13,428 nt of DNA, taken from the IMG/VR virus record IMGVR_UViG_2579778791_000027, one strand, 5' to 3'. Below the pieces are notes generated by a model. It did not search any database. It saw only the letters and a program-made list of their open reading frames with translations, and had not been told where the DNA came from. A program made the position numbers and the translations under genes. The DNA is from a virus (taxonomy: Duplodnaviria; Heunggongvirae; Uroviricota; Caudoviricetes). Below, piece by piece: positions 4,229-13,428 of the stretch; the first letter of the stretch is position 1, and every line of letters starts with the position of its first letter.

Positions 4229-4278
4229 TCCCCACCTCAATCTCGATAACAAAAAAACAAACTATTTTCCGTTTAAAA

Positions 4279-4346
4279 ACAATGGAGTTTGTTTTTCACG
4301 CCCCTTTTTACAATATTTCTTGTTTACAATATACAATCTTCCTTGT
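4279..4346 (+). promoter_or_regulatory. OL operators (three 434-type ACAA-N6-TTGT sites) with a pL-like promoter
   Basis: acaatggagtttgt (4279-4292), acaatatttcttgt (4310-4323), acaatcttccttgt (4333-4346); candidate -35 TTTACA at 4323-4328 and an A/T-rich -10 near 4346-4351, oriented toward N. Confidence 0.75.
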
Positions 4347-4391
4347 AATTTTAAGCCATCAGCAGGACGCACTGACCACCATTGAAGGTGA

Positions 4392-4422
4392 GGCTCTTAA
4401 AAATTAAGCCCTGAAGAAGGGC
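4392..4422 (+). promoter_or_regulatory. nutL (boxA plus boxB hairpin)
   Basis: boxA-like GGCTCTTAA at 4392-4400 and boxB GCCCTGAAGAAGGGC at 4408-4422, upstream of N. Confidence 0.8.
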
Positions 4423-4579
4423 AGCATTCAAAGCAGAAGGCTTTGGTGTGTGTGATACGAAACGAAGCATTGGCCGGAAGTGCGAATCCGGATTAGCTGC
4501 CAATGTGCCATTGCGGGGTGTTTTCGTTCAGGACTACGACTCCCACACACAACCAAAGCTAACTGACAGGAGAATCCAG

Positions 4580-4903
4580 ATGGATGCACAAACACGCCGC
4601 CGCGAACGTCGCGCAGAGAAACAGGCTCAATGGAAAGCAGCAAATCCCCTGTTGGTTGGGGTAAGCGCTAAACCAGTTAACCGCCCTATTCTCTCGCTGA
4701 ATCGCAAACCGAAATCACGAGTAGAAAGCGCACTGAATCCGATAGACCTTACGGTGCTGGCTGAATACCACGAACAGATTGAAAGCAACCTGCAACGTAT
4801 TGAGCGCAAGAATCATCGAGTTTGGTATAGCAAGCCAGGTGAGTTCGGTATAACTTGTCAAGGAAGACAAAAGGTTAAAGGGGAATCCATTCCATTGGCA
4901 TGA
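4580..4903 (+). CDS. N: Antitermination protein N
   Basis: Translation from the ATG at 4580 gives MDAQTRRRERRAEKQAQWKAANPLLVGVSAKPVNRPILSLNRKPKSRVESALNPIDLTVLAEYH... (107 aa), recognised as lambda N with an arginine-rich N-terminus. The 151-aa track ORF is an upstream extension through nutL. Confidence 0.93.
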   Translation: MDAQTRRRERRAEKQAQWKAANPLLVGVSAKPVNRPILSLNRKPKSRVESALNPIDLTVLAEYHEQIESNLQRIERKNHRVWYSKPGEFGITCQGRQKVKGESIPLA

Positions 4904-4911
4904 GGTACGTA

Positions 4912-5781
4912 ATGAAGAAGATTGATTACAAGTCCATACCAAAACCAATAGACTCAGCATCAGAGCGAAAAAAACACAAAAAAGAGGCTGAAAAATTAGC
5001 AAATTATATCAGTTTTATTAGAAACAATGCTCACGGCGATGGCGACAAGAAGTTGCTTTCAGATGCTCGGACCCAAGCGTTCGGTATACTTCGTAAGCAG
5101 ATGCAATATCGTCTTCATCCTGGCTACATAATTGAAATTCGCCCTACTGAAAGACAATTGTTCTTATTAAACTCTGTCTTTGACTTTGTAAACGTAGTTG
5201 GAGATCTTATCGACAGGTCTGTAGATAAGGATCCTGATACAAATAGTTTTCTTCTAACAAATAAAGAATACTTATATGGTAAATTCGGTATAAACGGATG
5301 GCAAAAATATGTACGCTTCTTACGTGCATTCGTTGATGCGTATAAAAATTCCGACATGATTTATACATATTTGCCTGGTGGTGATAATTGTACGCTTTCG
5401 GCAGACAATAGAATATTCATACCTGTACTTGGTCTTGGGCTGATTAATGCAGTAAATGAAAAAGATGTTATAATTGTTAAGCAGTGGCGAAAATATGAGG
5501 GATATAGATATCTGCCATGCTTTGATATATTAAAAATACAGAATAAATTCTATGTAAAAATTAAATATAAAGAAGATATTTTCTTCCTCAGAAAAAACAT
5601 AGATCTTTTACAAGAACTTTCTGGTACAATAGATGTCATCTTAGGTTCTAGGTTTATAAAAGAACTGAAAGAAAGCAGGTCTTTCTCTCGTGTAGAGATA
5701 AGCGAGTCAGAGTTATGGGGTATATCAAATAATCCTGTAAACCACGCTCACCAACGAAACCCAAACAAAAAGTGGTCATAA
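4912..5781 (+). CDS. Hypothetical protein of unknown function (~289 aa, AT-rich), in the slot lambda uses for ral/sieB; candidate accessory or exclusion gene
   Basis: Uninterrupted ORF. ATG at 4912 has a GAGG RBS 6 nt upstream; an alternative ATG at 4900 overlaps the N stop. Composition is visibly A/T-rich, unlike flanking lambda genes. I do not recognise the protein; no Walker A motif or transmembrane segment seen by eye. Confidence 0.7.
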   Translation: MKKIDYKSIPKPIDSASERKKHKKEAEKLANYISFIRNNAHGDGDKKLLSDARTQAFGILRKQMQYRLHPGYIIEIRPTERQLFLLNSVFDFVNVVGDLIDRSVDKDPDTNSFLLTNKEYLYGKFGINGWQKYVRFLRAFVDAYKNSDMIYTYLPGGDNCTLSADNRIFIPVLGLGLINAVNEKDVIIVKQWRKYEGYRYLPCFDILKIQNKFYVKIKYKEDIFFLRKNIDLLQELSGTIDVILGSRFIKELKESRSFSRVEISESELWGISNNPVNHAHQRNPNKKWS

Positions 5782-5923
5782 CCCGCTCAGGCGGATTTCA
5801 TTTTCACGCAAACAACAGAATAAACACAGCGCTGTGTATTCATTCCAACGAGTGAATACACGGAGCAATGTCGCTCGTAACTAAACAGGAGCCGACTTGT
5901 TCTGATTATTGGAAATCTTCTTT

Positions 5924-5950
5924 GCCCTCCAAGATGAGGGCGATTTTTTA
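5924..5950 (+). terminator. Intrinsic terminator-like hairpin between the unknown ORF and ea10
   Basis: gccctc-caagat-gagggc followed by gaTTTTTTAt. Confidence 0.55.
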
Positions 5951-7063: not shown

Positions 7064-7849
7064 ATGAGTACAGCACTCGCAACGCTGGCAGGGAAGCTGG
7101 CTGAACGTGTCGGCATGGATTCTGTCGACCCACAGGAACTGATCACCACTCTTCGCCAGACGGCATTTAAAGGCGATGCCAGCGATGCGCAGTTCATCGC
7201 ATTGTTGATCGTCGCCAACCAGTACGGCCTTAATCCGTGGACGAAAGAAATTTACGCCTTCCCTGATAAGCAGAACGGCATCGTTCCGGTGGTGGGCGTT
7301 GATGGCTGGTCCCGCATCATCAATGAAAACCAGCAGTTTGATGGCATGGACTTTGAGCAGGACAATGAATCCTGTACATGCCGGATTTACCGCAAGGACC
7401 GTAATCATCCGATCTGCGTTACCGAATGGATGGATGAATGCCGCCGCGAACCATTCAAAACCCGCGAAGGCAGAGAAATCACGGGGCCGTGGCAGTCGCA
7501 TCCTAAACGGATGTTACGGCATAAAGCTATGATTCAGTGTGCCCGTCTGGCCTTCGGATTTGCTGGTATCTATGACAAGGATGAAGCCGAGCGCATTGTC
7601 GAAAATACTGCATACACTGCAGAACGCCAGCCGGAACGCGACATCACTCCGGTTAACGATGAAACCATGCAGGAGATTAACACTCTGCTAATCGCCCTGG
7701 ATAAAACATGGGATGACGACTTATTGCCGCTCTGTTCCCAGATATTTCGCCGCGACATTCGCGCATCGTCAGAACTGACACAGGCCGAAGCAGTGAAAGC
7801 TCTTGGATTCCTGAAACAGAAAGCCACTGAGCAGAAGGTGGCAGCATGA
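7064..7849 (+). CDS. bet: Bet (Red-beta single-strand annealing protein)
   Basis: 261-aa [71 protein letters not shown]... recognised as lambda Beta. Confidence 0.95.
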
Positions 7850-8526
7850 CACCGGACATTATCCTGCAGCGTACCGGGATCGACGTGAGAGCTGTCGAAC
7901 AGGGGGATGATGCGTGGCACAAATTACGGCTCGGCGTCATCACAGCTTCAGAAGTTCATAACGTAATAGCAAAACCCCGCTCCGGAAAAAAGTGGCCTGA
8001 CATGAAAATGTCCTACTTCCACACCCTGCTTGCTGAGGTTTGCACCGGTGTGGCTCCGGAAGTTAACGCTAAAGCGCTGGCCTGGGGAAAACAGTACGAG
8101 AACGACGCCAGAGCCCTGTTTGAGTTCACTTCCGGCGTGAATGTTACTGAATCACCGATCATCTATCGCGACGAAAGTATGCGTACCGCCTGCTCTCCAG
8201 ATGGTTTATGCAGTGACGGCAACGGCCTTGAACTGAAATGCCCGTTTACCTCCCGGGATTTCATGAAGTTCCGGCTCGGTGGTTTCGAGGCCATAAAGTC
8301 AGCTTACATGGCCCAGGTGCAGTACAGCATGTGGGTGACGCGAAAAGATGCCTGGTACTTTGCCAACTATGACCCGCGTATGAAGCGTGAAGGACTGCAT
8401 TATGTCGTGGTTGAGCGGGATGAAAAGTACATGGCGGGTTTTGACGAGATGGTGCCGGAGTTCATCGAAAAAATGGACGAGGCACTGGCTGAAATTGGTT
8501 TTGTATTTGGGGAGCAATGGCGATGA
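7846..8526 (+). CDS. exo: Exo (lambda 5'-3' exonuclease, Red-alpha)
   Basis: 226-aa [71 protein letters not shown]... recognised as lambda Exo; start overlaps the bet stop. Confidence 0.95.
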
Positions 8527-9259: not shown

Positions 9260-9481
9260 ATGGCAGACATCATTGATTCAGCATCAGAAATTGAAGAATT
9301 ACAGCGCAACACAGCAATAAAAATGCGCCGCCTGAACCACCAGGCTATATCTGCCACTCATTGTTGTGAGTGTGGCGATCCCATAGATGAGCGAAGACGC
9401 CTGGCCGTTCAGGGTTGTCGGACTTGTGCAAGTTGCCAGGAGGATCTGGAACTTATCAGTAAACAGAGAGGTTCGAAGTGA
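9260..9481 (+). CDS. TraR/DksA-family C4 zinc-finger protein (lambda Orf73-like)
   Basis: 73-aa ORF with CxxC...CxxC (CCECGDPIDERRRLAVQGCRTCASC), typical of the TraR/DksA family and consistent with lambda Orf73. Confidence 0.8.
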   Translation: MADIIDSASEIEELQRNTAIKMRRLNHQAISATHCCECGDPIDERRRLAVQGCRTCASCQEDLELISKQRGSK

Positions 9482-9691
9482 GCGAAATTAACTAGAAGCC
9501 AAAGATAAAATCATCGCTGAGCAGGAGAAAATCGCTAACGGAGAAAAGACAGTAAGTCAGTATATGAAAACCGCATGATATCATCAGATAAAAATCGATC
9601 GTAAAGCGAAATATTAATACCAGAATAAACGAGTCGAGGTAAATTATATTACCTCGATAAATTAACTAAAACTTGCCCGCTATATACTATC

Positions 9692-10294
9692 TCATTCAGT
9701 ATCATCACGCGCGGTCTGTGCATATGTTACTACCGCACCTAATGTATTAATTTTCTTTTCAACATAGATAATATTATCGTACTCATAATTGCCATACGGA
9801 TAGCAAATGCGAATATTCTCATGTAGATCGGGGTCATCCACCTCAGCTCCAGAACAACTTTTTGAACTACCGGAAGTATACCGATACGGTGCAACATAAG
9901 ACGATGTCTCTCCAGGCAAAAAATAAGTTAGTGTTGTAAGGGGTATAATCAGAAAAAATCCAGCAAATATGCACATCCCTGCATAAACCTTAAGGTATGC
10001 TGACAGACTCTTCCAGCCGCTTTGTTTTACTATCCCCTTCTTAACCCAAAACAGAGATAACAGAAAAGCTATTCCCATGCTAAACAGAATGTAATAGTGG
10101 GATATACTCTGATTAAGAAACGTGACCCTGTAAATATCTGCCCGCCACCAGAAGAAAAGGAAAATAAAGATCAGGCCTGAAACTGTCATGCAAATCAAAT
10201 AAGGATACGAATCTTTTTTCATGTTTAGCGTCCATAAAATTTTTCCTGCCCCGGACAAATTTACCATCCATTTTTTGCGCAGAAAATAGCTCAT
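9692..10294 (-). CDS. Hypothetical integral membrane protein (multiple predicted TM helices plus a ~70-aa C-terminal soluble region), AT-rich, opposite in orientation to the early-left operon
   Basis: 200-aa ORF. Hydrophobic stretches YLICMTVSGLIFIFLFFWW, YYILFSMGIAFLLSLFWV and AGMCIFAGFFLIIPLTTLTYFL. Three in-frame ATGs (10294, 10267, 10222), none with a strong SD, so the start is uncertain. Not recognised as a lambda protein. Confidence 0.6.
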   Translation of the reverse strand: MSYFLRKKWMVNLSGAGKILWTLNMKKDSYPYLICMTVSGLIFIFLFFWWRADIYRVTFLNQSISHYYILFSMGIAFLLSLFWVKKGIVKQSGWKSLSAYLKVYAGMCIFAGFFLIIPLTTLTYFLPGETSSYVAPYRYTSGSSKSCSGAEVDDPDLHENIRICYPYGNYEYDNIIYVEKKINTLGAVVTYAQTARDDTE

Positions 10295-10536
10295 TACTTA
10301 CTGCACAATAATACACAAAATTGCGTAAATTTTTTGCATGGATTTTAGCTCTTTCAGCCGACGTTTAAGGGGTAAATAGCATTTCCTAAAAGCAACTGCA
10401 CCAACCCAACAGAATGAGCTACCGCTTACGTTGAGAGCAAAAAAGTGTATAGCAGCAATGAACAGCATCCTCGCACTGACGAGGATTTCTTTTATCTGAA
10501 CTCGCTACGGCGGGTTTTGTTTTATGGAGATGATAA

Positions 10537-10704
10537 ATGCACTTCCGAGTCACAGGTGAATGGAATGGAGAACCATTCAACAGAGTTATCGAAGCAGAGA
10601 ACATCAATGACTGCTATGACCACTGGATGATATGGGCGCAGATAGCACATGCAGACATAACCAATATTCGAATTGAAGAACTGAAAGAACACCAAGCCGC
10701 CTGA
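10537..10704 (+). CDS. Small hypothetical protein (55 aa) immediately upstream of xis, possibly the lambda orf55 equivalent
   Basis: ATG at 10537 with a GGAGA RBS 6 nt upstream; product MHFRVTGEWNGEPFNRVIEAENINDCYDHWMIWAQIAHADITNIRIEELKEHQAA; stop lies in a terminator-like hairpin. Below the track threshold. Confidence 0.5.
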   Translation: MHFRVTGEWNGEPFNRVIEAENINDCYDHWMIWAQIAHADITNIRIEELKEHQAA

Positions 10705-10720
10705 TGGCGGCTTTTTCTTG
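10694..10720 (+). terminator. Intrinsic terminator-like hairpin upstream of xis
   Basis: aagccgcc-tgat-ggcggctt followed by TTTTCTT. Confidence 0.5.
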
Positions 10721-10743
10721 CGTGTAATTGCGGAGACTTTGCG

Positions 10744-10962
10744 ATGTACTTGACACTTCAGGAGTGGAACGCACGCCAGCGACGCCCAAGAAGCCTTGAA
10801 ACAGTTCGTCGATGGGTGCGCGAATGCAGGATATTCCCTCCTCCGGTTAAGGATGGAAGAGAGTATCTGTTCCACGAATCAGCGGTAAAGGTTGACTTAA
10901 ATCGACCAGTAACAGGTAGCCTTTTGAAGAGGATCAGAAATGGGAAGAAGGCGAAGTCATGA
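10744..10962 (+). CDS. xis: Excisionase Xis
   Basis: 72-aa ORF MYLTLQEWNARQRRPRSLETVRRWVRECRIFPPPVKDGREYLFHESAVKVDLNRPVTGSLLKRIRNGKKAKS recognised as lambda Xis; overlaps the int start. Confidence 0.95.
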   Translation: MYLTLQEWNARQRRPRSLETVRRWVRECRIFPPPVKDGREYLFHESAVKVDLNRPVTGSLLKRIRNGKKAKS

Positions 10963-12010
10963 GCGCCGGGATTTACCCCCTAACCTTTATATAAGAAACA
11001 ATGGATATTACTGCTACAGGGACCCAAGGACGGGTAAAGAGTTTGGTTTAGGCCGAGACAGGAGGATAGCAATCACTGAAGCAATACAGGCCAATATTGA
11101 GTTATTTTCAGGACACAAACACAAGCCTCTGACAGCGAGAATCAACAGTGATAATTCTGTTACGTTACATTCATGGCTTGATCGCTACGAAAAAATCCTC
11201 GCCAGCAGAGGAATCAAGCAGAAGACACTCATAAATTACATGAGCAAAATTAAAGCAATAAGGAGGGGGCTGCCTGATGCTCCACTTGAAGACATCACCA
11301 CAAAAGAAATTGCGGCAATGCTCAATGGATACATAGACGAGGGCAAGGCGGCGTCAGCCAAGTTAATCAGATCAACACTGAGCGATGCATTCCGAGAGGC
11401 AATAGCTGAAGGCCATATAACAACAAACCCGGTCGCTGCCACTCGCGCAGCAAAATCAGAGGTAAGGAGATCAAGACTTACGGCTGACGAATACCTGAAA
11501 ATTTATCAAGCAGCAGAATCATCACCATGTTGGCTCAGACTTGCAATGGAACTGGCTGTTGTTACCGGGCAGCGAGTTGGTGATTTATGCGAAATGAAGT
11601 GGTCTGATATCGTAGATGGATATCTTTATGTCGAACAAAGCAAAACAGGCGTAAAAATTGCCATCCCTACAACATTGCATGTTGATGCTCTCGGGATATC
11701 AATGAAGGAAACACTTGATAAATGCAAAGAGATTCTTGGCGGAGAAACCATAATTGCATCTACTCGTCGTGAACCGCTTTCATCCGGCACAGTATCAAGG
11801 TATTTTATGCGCGCACGAAAAGCATCAGGTCTTTCCTTCGAAGGGGATCCGCCTACCTTTCACGAGTTGCGCAGTTTGTCTGCAAGACTCTATGAGAAGC
11901 AGATAAGCGATAAGTTTGCTCAACATCTTCTCGGACATAAGTCGGACACCATGGCATCACAGTATCGTGATGACAGAGGCAGGGAGTGGGACAAAATTGA
12001 AATCAAATAA
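10940..12010 (+). CDS. int: Integrase Int (tyrosine recombinase)
   Basis: 356-aa ORF MGRRRSHERRDLPPNLYIRNNGYYCYRDPRTGKEFGLGRDRRIAITEAIQANIELFSGHKHKPLTARINSDNSVTLHSWLDRYEKILASRGIKQKTL... recognised as lambda Int. Confidence 0.97.
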   Translation: MGRRRSHERRDLPPNLYIRNNGYYCYRDPRTGKEFGLGRDRRIAITEAIQANIELFSGHKHKPLTARINSDNSVTLHSWLDRYEKILASRGIKQKTLINYMSKIKAIRRGLPDAPLEDITTKEIAAMLNGYIDEGKAASAKLIRSTLSDAFREAIAEGHITTNPVAATRAAKSEVRRSRLTADEYLKIYQAAESSPCWLRLAMELAVVTGQRVGDLCEMKWSDIVDGYLYVEQSKTGVKIAIPTTLHVDALGISMKETLDKCKEILGGETIIASTRREPLSSGTVSRYFMRARKASGLSFEGDPPTFHELRSLSARLYEKQISDKFAQHLLGHKSDTMASQYRDDRGREWDKIEIK

Positions 12011-12144: not shown

Positions 12145-13428
12145 GTGAACACATTTTCAGTTTCCCGTCTGGCGCTGGCATTGGCTTTTGGCGTGACGCT
12201 GACCGCCTGTAGCTCAACACCACCCGATCAACGTCCTTCTGATCAAACCGCGCCTGGTACCTCTTCTCGCCCGATTCTGTCGGCAAAAGAAGCGCAGAAT
12301 TTCGATGCTCAACACTATTTTGCATCCCTGACACCAGGTGCTGCAGCGTGGAATCCTTCCCCGATTACCCTGCCTGCGCAACCTGACTTTGTTGTCGGCC
12401 CGGCGGGTACTCAAGGTGTAACGCATACCACGATTCAGGCGGCGGTAGATGCGGCAATTATCAAGCGCACTAACAAGCGCCAGTATATTGCCGTGATGCC
12501 TGGTGAGTATCAGGGAACGGTGTATGTCCCTGCTGCTCCGGGTGGAATTACTCTGTACGGTACAGGTGAAAAACCGATTGATGTGAAGATTGGGCTTTCC
12601 CTTGATGGGGGCATGAGCCCTGCCGACTGGCGTCACGACGTCAACCCGCGCGGCAAATATATGCCAGGTAAACCAGCGTGGTATATGTACGATAGCTGCC
12701 AGAGCAAACGCAGCGACAGTATCGGTGTTCTCTGCTCTGCGGTCTTCTGGTCACAAAACAATGGCCTGCAACTGCAAAATCTGACCATCGAAAACACGCT
12801 GGGCGATAGCGTAGATGCAGGTAACCATCCGGCGGTGGCACTGCGTACTGATGGTGACCAGGTACAGATTAACAACGTTAACATTCTCGGTCGTCAGAAC
12901 ACCTTCTTTGTCACCAACAGCGGTGTGCAGAACCGTCTGGAAACCAACCGTCAGCCGCGTACGCTGGTGACCAACAGCTACATTGAAGGGGATGTGGATA
13001 TCGTTTCTGGTCGCGGCGCAGTGGTGTTCGATAACACCGAATTCCGCGTGGTGAACTCACGTACTCAGCAAGAAGCGTATGTGTTTGCACCGGCTACGCT
13101 GTCCAACATTTACTACGGTTTCCTCGCCGTAAACAGCCGTTTCAATGCTTTCGGTGATGGTGTGGCGCAACTGGGCCGCTCGCTGGATGTTGATGCCAAT
13201 ACCAACGGTCAGGTGGTGATCCGTGATAGCGCCATCAACGAAGGTTTTAACACGGCTAAACCGTGGGCCGATGCGGTGATCTCTAATCGTCCGTTTGCGG
13301 GTAATACCGGCAGCGTAGATGATAACGACGAAATACAGCGCAATCTGAATGACACTAACTACAACCGCATGTGGGAATACAATAACCGCGGCGTGGGTAG
13401 TAAAGTGGTTGCAGAGGCGAAGAAGTAA
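12145..13428 (+). CDS. ybhC: Host outer-membrane lipoprotein YbhC (pectinesterase-fold protein, putative acyl-CoA thioesterase), complete
   Basis: 427-aa ORF with a lipoprotein signal peptide and lipobox (LALAFGVTLTAC); GTG start with a GGAG RBS; different codon style from the phage. Sequence and position next to att-lambda match E. coli ybhC. Confidence 0.88.
   Translation: MNTFSVSRLALALAFGVTLTACSSTPPDQRPSDQTAPGTSSRPILSAKEAQNFDAQHYFASLTPGAAAWNPSPITLPAQPDFVVGPAGTQGVTHTTIQAAVDAAIIKRTNKRQYIAVMPGEYQGTVYVPAAPGGITLYGTGEKPIDVKIGLSLDGGMSPADWRHDVNPRGKYMPGKPAWYMYDSCQSKRSDSIGVLCSAVFWSQNNGLQLQNLTIENTLGDSVDAGNHPAVALRTDGDQVQINNVNILGRQNTFFVTNSGVQNRLETNRQPRTLVTNSYIEGDVDIVSGRGAVVFDNTEFRVVNSRTQQEAYVFAPATLSNIYYGFLAVNSRFNAFGDGVAQLGRSLDVDANTNGQVVIRDSAINEGFNTAKPWADAVISNRPFAGNTGSVDDNDEIQRNLNDTNYNRMWEYNNRGVGSKVVAEAKK

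Follow-up and report, generated by a model that had tools for sequence, protein, structure and literature searches.

The closest described counterparts of the gene analyzed here are two exclusion proteins of the inner membrane: SieA of phage P22, with 162–164 amino acids (aa) and three predicted transmembrane (TM) helices (PMC10883804), and gp15 of phage HK97, a moron-encoded superinfection-exclusion (Sie) protein related to YebO, whose homologs are mostly chromosomal genes of Enterobacteriaceae (PMC3594210). Our gene lies on the minus strand, at 9692–10222, of a 13,428-nucleotide stretch of Caudoviricetes DNA (IMG/VR record IMGVR_UViG_2579778791_000027), the whole of which is hereafter called the window. 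It is a self-contained moron encoding an inner-membrane protein with a predicted N-in/C-out topology and a predicted periplasmic barrel, and it adds an uncharacterized member to the familiar prophage membrane morons. We tentatively favor, as one possible reading, a Sie factor acting at the periplasmic face of the inner membrane, and weigh it below against a role in envelope physiology and against less probable functions.

As in P22 SieA, the gene is a solitary prophage gene with an apparent promoter of its own, read against the neighboring operon, and its product is of similar length (about 165–176 aa) with three predicted TM helices and no cleavable signal peptide. The two differ in that SieA lacks a β-barrel and has its conserved motif, by prediction, in the cytoplasm, whereas the conserved part of the present protein is a predicted periplasmic, cysteine-containing barrel. 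With HK97 gp15 the gene shares its moron character, an apparent promoter of its own, a deviant guanine-plus-cytosine (GC) content and homologs restricted to Enterobacteriaceae, many of them chromosomal. By description, gp15 is set apart as a small protein whose gene lies in the tail operon, while the present protein has a structured periplasmic domain.

Two further comparisons concern position. The gpA–gpQ interval of P2-like prophages is the old/tin locus, a validated defense hotspot (Rousset et al., PMC9122126), and homologs of 55–70% identity lie at exactly this locus, among cargo that comprises old, tin and other defense systems; the protein nevertheless resembles no PADLOC system, and the E. 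coli gene, the window copy included, is found in lambdoid prophages rather than in P2. Phage lambda has the gene order orf73-ea22-ea8.5-orf55-xis (PMC8614690). Since our gene sits between the orf73 (TraR-like) and orf55 homologs, it takes the place of exactly ea22 and ea8.5, and the first-pass annotation of the window was right to assign it to this slot. It is a replacement of these genes and not a homolog, given the opposite orientation, the unrelated proteins, a membrane-bound rather than a soluble product, and an apparent promoter of its own in place of pL. Membrane-anchored OB-fold proteins of the NfeD and DUF1093 (YxeA) types were also compared, and there was no Pfam match and no significant fold match of the C-terminal barrel.

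The gene, its product and its mobile module

A single opposite-strand open reading frame (ORF) had initially been drawn between the TraR-like gene and xis, and this ORF is present as described, running from an ATG over 9692..10294 (minus strand, 200 aa). The gene itself almost certainly begins 72 nt further downstream, at the codon for Met25, so that the coding sequence (CDS) of the inner-membrane protein comprises 531 nt at 9692..10222 (minus strand; ATG 10222–10220, stop 9694–9692) and specifies 176 aa. This start is indicated by comparison among homologs, because conservation begins at Met25, because the extension upstream is interrupted in some strains and because it is more variable than the core. 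In an alignment of 22 homologs the conserved part sets in at Met25; the homologs of 42–78% identity all begin MKK(D/Y)SYP and measure 169–180 aa, and in the E. coli variants P0022 and P0027 the reading frame differs upstream of this residue. Strains E148 and HD12481 have a stop at codon 9 of the extension (W9, TGG to TAG), and there the Prokaryotic Genome Annotation Pipeline (PGAP) annotates the 176-aa form; the copies L020 and L021 show W9 to TAG together with M10 to GTG. Among seven E. coli copies, 13 of the 528 nt of the core are variable, as against 7 of the 72 nt of the 24-codon extension and 16 of the 171 nt in the region of the 56-aa ORF that lies upstream. The extension (10223..10294, minus strand), which is not conserved among homologs, is most likely noncoding and made up of 5' untranslated region and core promoter.

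Substitution patterns indicate that the gene is under strong purifying selection, with a ratio of nonsynonymous to synonymous rates (dN/dS) of about 0.1. The estimates against the Salmonella copies are 0.08–0.16, at a dS near saturation; seven synonymous and no nonsynonymous differences separate the window copy from that of E. coli E148, and five synonymous and one nonsynonymous from that of mEp332. A degraded fragment, which would have spoken against the initial proposal, is excluded by the dN/dS of ~0.1 and by the seven to zero changes within E. coli. The gene is kept in the degraded prophages of EDL933, E148 and HD12481.

That the product crosses the membrane several times and ends in a soluble domain had been recognized from the outset, and hydropathy and AlphaFold2 agree with this description. 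The membrane region (9920..10210, minus strand) has three TM helices, at residues 5–29, 38–61 and 70–101 counted from Met25, and a short periplasmic loop, WWxxxIYRVTFL; the C-terminal domain of ~75 aa (9695..9919, minus strand) is predicted to be a periplasmic, five-stranded OB-like β-barrel. Three hydrophobic segments stand out with Kyte-Doolittle peaks of 2.09, 1.69 and 2.04. Loop 2 contains five K/R and no D/E, the N-terminus reads MKK and the C-terminal 74 residues are net acidic (12 D/E vs 6 K/R), a charge pattern that by the positive-inside rule argues for an N-in, C-out topology. The AlphaFold2 model, built with 19 sequences, has a mean predicted local distance difference test score (pLDDT) of 85.1, with 87–91 in the helices, and a predicted template-modeling score (pTM) of 0.71; besides a short loop 1 strand, it shows a β domain of five strands at residues 105–171, and the C-terminal domain modeled alone reached a pLDDT of 90.9. 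Residues W26, I30, R32, T34 and L36 of the membrane region are invariant, and even the most distant members keep two cysteines of the domain, C123 (SCSGAxVxDPxL) and C140 (IRICYPxGxY), without exception. In P0109, which is among the distant members, a signal-peptide-like N-terminus is joined directly to the domain; together with the invariant cysteines, this variant argues that the conserved domain lies outside the cytoplasm. The barrel is probably stapled by a C123–C140 disulfide.

The promoter had first been sought at 10295–10440, but the sole conserved promoter-like element lies at 10286–10258, within the ORF as originally drawn. This candidate σ70 promoter (10258..10286, minus strand) comprises a −35-like TTTTCT (10286–10281), a 17-nt spacer and an extended −10 element, TGGTAAATT (10266–10258), whose hexamer TAAATT is preceded by TG and ends 35 nt before the ATG. 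The assignment combines a lenient σ70 scan with conservation: TGnTAAnTT recurs 35–39 nt upstream of the ATG in five diverged lineages (434, two Salmonella subtypes, Cedecea and Citrobacter), in otherwise poorly conserved surroundings upstream of the gene, and positions 10258–10266 are free of substitutions among the seven E. coli copies. That the extended −10 falls inside the 24-codon extension is further evidence for the Met25 start.

Direct repeats of 10-bp period, TTTGTGTATT/ATTGTGCAG, lie upstream of the promoter (10301..10319, minus strand), and here the 434 record flags a CII-consensus site (10305–10318). Copies of ATTGTGCA(G) are found twice in the Salmonella locus L004 and three times in L005 (about 5900–5935 in both), and the repeats are conserved in lambdoid and P2-like prophages alike; the window shows no enrichment of ATTGTGCA, and conservation across contexts is its sole support. 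By its layout the CII annotation is doubtful. The flagged site (10318–10305) reads TTGT-N6-TTGT and has TATTTT 16 nt and the conserved extended −10 38 nt downstream, while the proven CII-type sites of the window, pRE at 2734 and pI at 10718, read TTGC-N6-TTGC with a −10 hexamer 13–15 nt downstream; P2-like prophages carry the same repeats yet have no CII. It would come as a surprise if these upstream repeats, of the TTGY-N6-TTGY type, let the CII/C1 activator of a lambdoid phage induce the gene.

The 434 records annotate the 56-aa ORF (10298..10468, minus strand) as CPT_434_35, a 'putative membrane protein'; the mEp332 record has it as a 'hypothetical protein' and M60848 as ORF-22+. Comparison with relatives suggests that it is probably not a gene and that the annotated CDS is spurious: it is broken by independent 1-bp deletions at 10444 (L020 and L021) and at 10399 (L022), it has no PHROG, PADLOC or NCBIfam match, and PGAP makes no call of it in E. 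coli genomes. The ~240 bp upstream of the gene had been considered noncoding, which is probably correct in view of these frameshifts; the region also holds the pL-strand terminator tL4 (10467–10486). The model first proposed, namely a 200-aa protein initiated at 10294 under a promoter in 10295–10440 and perhaps in an operon with the 56-aa ORF, can claim that most E. coli copies have an uninterrupted long ORF, that PGAP annotates 200 aa in EDL933 and that the 434 record annotates both ORFs along with the CII-consensus site at 10305–10318. We nevertheless give it hardly any credence, as conservation starts at Met25, the extension is stopped in E148 and HD12481, the 56-aa ORF is frameshifted, the conserved −10 lies downstream of 10294, and DNA homology with the copies in P2-like prophages stops near 10318–10355.

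This homology also delimits what moves. From window position 10355/10318 to 9724, the copy of 434 has about 70% DNA identity with those in Salmonella P2-like prophages, which points to a mobile unit of about 630 bp containing promoter and CDS. The cassette is A/T-rich, as had been observed at once, with 38.8% GC for the ORF and 37.9% for the block 9482–10466, against 49.1% from exo to the TraR-like gene and 45.7% from ORF55 to int; the mobile-branch copies in E. coli, Salmonella, Cedecea and Citrobacter all lie ~10 GC points under their surroundings. Lambda is without the cassette at this position, and unrelated genomes, both P2-like prophages and bacterial chromosomes, have it. The shared module, the conserved −10, the GC deficit and the absence from lambda together lend good support to the initial view of an independently transcribed moron.

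The perfect hairpin reported between the gene and the convergent TraR-like gene is present at 9634..9657 (minus strand), 35 nt beyond the stop codon and with a 9-bp stem and a 6-nt loop; it may serve as a weak terminator of the minus-strand transcript. Its U-tract is poor (CUCGUUUAUU), the z-score of its fold reaches only −1.6, and in other contexts the gene is not accompanied by it; it lies outside the shared module, as do the remaining upstream region, tL4 and a second hairpin at 10498–10517. The single stem substitution seen, at 9654 in L020 and L021, produces a G-U pair in the minus-strand RNA and an A-C mismatch in the plus-strand RNA, which weakly supports a hairpin acting on the minus-strand transcript. 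The 3' arm is overlapped at 9654–9663 (plus strand) by TCGATAAATT, which we take to be a high-affinity H-NS nucleation motif; with a GC content of 38%, the cassette may be H-NS-silenced in E. coli.

Distribution across prophages and chromosomes

The family is tiny, with 61 clusters among 1.84 billion representatives and 10 loci in 185,579 species genomes, and it is confined to Enterobacteriaceae. The protein has no match in Pfam, NCBIfam or the PDB sequence profiles, and a Pfam search with all 19 family members gave none either; PHROG 1416 ('unknown function') matches TM3 and the C-terminal domain only. Two groups of matches were set aside: an apparently separate short family (matches of 86–144 aa), which consists mostly of fragments or miscalls, and the 3074-aa protein P0121, a repetitive sequence with nine matched stretches and no informative Pfam domain.

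In E. coli the gene is common, being present in 916 of the 5426 complete genomes (17%, about one in six). Its hosts there and in Shigella and E. marmotae are lambdoid prophages; E. coli O157:H7 EDL933 has it in a degraded prophage beside ybhC, and other remnants occupy the dsdC/torI site. Only five deposited phage genomes carry it. Across 9480–10540 the window is 100% identical to phage 434 (OL657226, OL657227), 99.9% to phage 2B8 and 98.8% to mEp332. A protein 99% identical to that of the window is encoded on a 3.5-kb contig of a 'Candidatus Nanosynbacter' metagenome-assembled genome (L024, JARKOR010000073.1), which is almost certainly a bin contamination by E. coli or its prophage.

P2-like prophages harbor homologs in Salmonella (70% and 58% identity) and in Klebsiella michiganensis (55–56%). 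These homologs (P0044, P0048 and P0055) always lie between gpA and the portal gene gpQ, flanked by Phage_GPA and, at the opposite end, by Phage_portal/terminase. Their neighbors in the hotspot, like the protein itself, are without a PADLOC match. The Klebsiella homolog adjoins a STAND/NB-ARC nucleoside triphosphatase (NTPase) gene: at 2281–5623 of L017/L018 a 790-aa STAND NTPase (AAA_16/NB-ARC) and a 279-aa protein are encoded, neither with a PADLOC match, which form a candidate Avs-like defense pair. The Salmonella hotspots (L004–L012, about 5100–5890) contain variable ORFs of 81, 119 and 123 aa near the gene that belong to no family, and in one case (L005, 6703–7687) a YafO-toxin gene and a 200-aa ORF; none of these is consistently linked to the gene.

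Chromosomal copies fall into several loci. In at least six Enterobacter species the gene is syntenic, with flanks 78–95% identical, and its GC content has ameliorated to 52%; this copy begins 16 nt after a LysR gene and is without the extended −10 motif, and E. cloacae retains it even where the LysR region is deleted. A second locus is partly common to Cedecea and Pseudescherichia, with an integrase fragment adjoining in Cedecea. Further sites occur in a Klebsiella sp., whose copy, as in Enterobacter, shows GC amelioration, and in Citrobacter, where tus and an rstB-like kinase gene are neighbors.

Candidate functions

That the protein excludes superinfecting phages from the periplasmic face of the inner membrane is, in our estimation, possible though short of probable. 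We place it first because the gene is solitary and apparently self-transcribed, because it occupies prophage accessory slots including a defense hotspot, because its layout resembles that of SieA, and because HK97 gp15 provides a precedent. With a promoter of its own opposed to pL, the cassette should be on in the lysogen: it would be expressed from the repressed prophage, and in lytic growth antisense transcription from pL would oppose it. The conserved periplasmic module, loop 1 plus barrel, could bind a conserved envelope or injection component needed by the DNA-delivery machinery of the phage, and DNA entry would then be blocked after adsorption, as with P22 SieA and HK97 gp15, with no killing of the host cell. 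A domain so conserved suggests that, if phages are excluded, the target is a host component of the entry route and not a variable phage protein. The homologs of 55–70% identity in the gpA–gpQ hotspot lend circumstantial support to exclusion or host modulation, the candidate functions first named for the gene, and the conserved domain would lie outside the cytoplasm, on the path of the injection machinery. A more specific version, in which the 630-bp module shared by lambdoid prophages and the P2 defense hotspot represents an unrecognized single-gene exclusion or defense family, its disulfide-bonded periplasmic barrel acting on a host component for phage DNA entry, seems to us rather unlikely.

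Several observations weigh against exclusion. The protein has no PADLOC match (PADLOC-DB v2, E ≤ 1), and no kinship to SieA emerged: hhalign of the family profile against P22 SieA returned a probability of 0.2% (E = 0.28 over 9 columns), and the SieA motif FxRYPxEAxxFNK is absent from the family alignment. A strict σ70 scan found no promoter upstream of the gene, and the −35 element is poor. Literature searches covering phage 434/mEp332 exclusion, CP-933K and the svsR small RNA turned up nothing about this gene. An antiviral role is predicted for only 15–32% of the unknown proteins of P2 elements (PMC13586616), which makes the hotspot location weak evidence. Across genera the domain retains 67–72% identity, as against 43–50% for the TM region, when SieA types diverge fast; judging from these rates, the slow evolution of the periplasmic domain is more in keeping with a conserved host target than with an arms race. 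The Enterobacter orthologs are, by synteny, vertically inherited and have a housekeeping or physiological look. The missing PADLOC and SieA kinship, the low antiviral fraction, these orthologs and the slow domain make a non-phage role in the envelope almost as likely as exclusion. The protein would then be an originally chromosomal accessory of envelope physiology whose barrel binds a conserved host envelope component and so modulates, for instance, a sensor, a transporter or a cell-wall process, and prophages would carry it as a lysogenic-conversion gene for host fitness or stress tolerance. The Enterobacter synteny and the retention in E. cloacae speak for it, as do the Cedecea/Pseudescherichia locus, the Citrobacter site near tus and the rstB-like kinase, the GC amelioration in the Enterobacter and Klebsiella sp. 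copies, the greater conservation of the periplasmic domain, and the upstream repeats, whose 10-bp period may recall response-regulator-type sites. It has to contend with the lack of any recognizable functional domain, with the repeated landing of the mobile branch in accessory and defense slots of prophages, and with a family narrower and patchier (10 loci in all species genomes searched) than is usual for a physiological function.

Two further functions would set the protein against a toxin or make it one. Colicin immunity proteins of the inner membrane are of similar size and have a similar multi-TM layout, and an orphan immunity protein could neutralize a toxin acting on the membrane or periplasm, be it a pore-forming or periplasmic bacteriocin or an effector of a type VI secretion or contact-dependent inhibition system, at the inner membrane by means of the TM bundle and the periplasmic domain. 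This resemblance, the solitary gene on mobile elements with its constitutive-type promoter, and the conserved extracytoplasmic domain with a putative disulfide fit such a role, and phage Cor, according to a review of morons (PMC3594210), protects against colicin M too. We still regard it as improbable, since no toxin gene adjoins the gene in any context examined and no likeness in sequence or fold to any solved immunity protein was found. An abortive-infection effector that permeabilizes the inner membrane once an infecting phage is sensed is more improbable still. TM proteins of known defense systems are often suicide effectors (PMC9122126) and the P2 hotspot would suit one; yet there is no conserved partner or sensor, the neighbors differing in every context, no PADLOC match, and the apparent expression from an own promoter and stable chromosomal retention are hard to square with a toxic effector. 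Searching the neighbors in the P2, Citrobacter and Cedecea contexts for a conserved partner or toxin gene brought up none that is conserved.

Surroundings of the cassette and implications

The cassette lies within the pL operon on the plus strand, which runs from exo (7846–8526) through the orf60a and orf63 homologs to a TraR/DksA zinc-finger gene, the orf73 homolog (9260–9481; PF01258, zf-dskA_traR), and on the other side of the cassette through ORF55 (10537–10704; PHROG 676) and xis (10744–10962; PF07825) to int (10940–12010). A 427-aa ORF (12145–13428) closes the window at the place where ybhC follows int in EDL933 and SCEC020001, and this position indicates a prophage at the lambda attachment site. 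ORF114, which separates ORF55 from xis in phage 434 proper, is absent from the window (10705–10743, compared with 4254–4598 of the 434 record L001), as it is from mEp332 and E. coli prophages; by this absence the window is a prophage of the 434 type, at the lambda attachment site, rather than phage 434 itself. Just past attP the 434 record (L001, 6461–7061, outside the window) annotates an NleC-like type III effector metalloprotease, a virulence-type cargo that is unexpected in a classical laboratory phage.

Terminator-like sites are over-represented between 9400 and 10800, with seven found and 1.1 expected; an Rfam search of the same interval returned no known RNA. Two of them are tandem hairpins on the pL strand (plus) directly before ORF55, at 10467–10486, the tL4 of M60848, and at 10498–10517. 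Another, a bidirectional hairpin at 10694–10713 (both strands), follows ORF55, with the pI CII site at 10718 immediately next to it, and corresponds by position to the terminator annotated before xis in the 434 records (t'I in M60848).

Whichever function applies, public annotation of this locus stands to be corrected with respect to the start codon, the spurious 56-aa 'membrane protein' gene and the doubtful CII site. If the protein is a physiological envelope protein, the cassette represents a chromosomal gene packaged with a promoter and shuttled between unrelated prophage families. Should exclusion be its function, a new and very compact determinant that blocks phage entry would be present in about one-sixth of sequenced E. 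coli, O157:H7 among them, and also in Salmonella and Klebsiella prophages, with a bearing on phage-therapy host range and on competition between prophages, and the conserved periplasmic domain might lead to a host factor on which phage DNA entry depends. The gene is widespread in pathogenic and commensal E. coli, and a putative anti-phage role for it is plausible.

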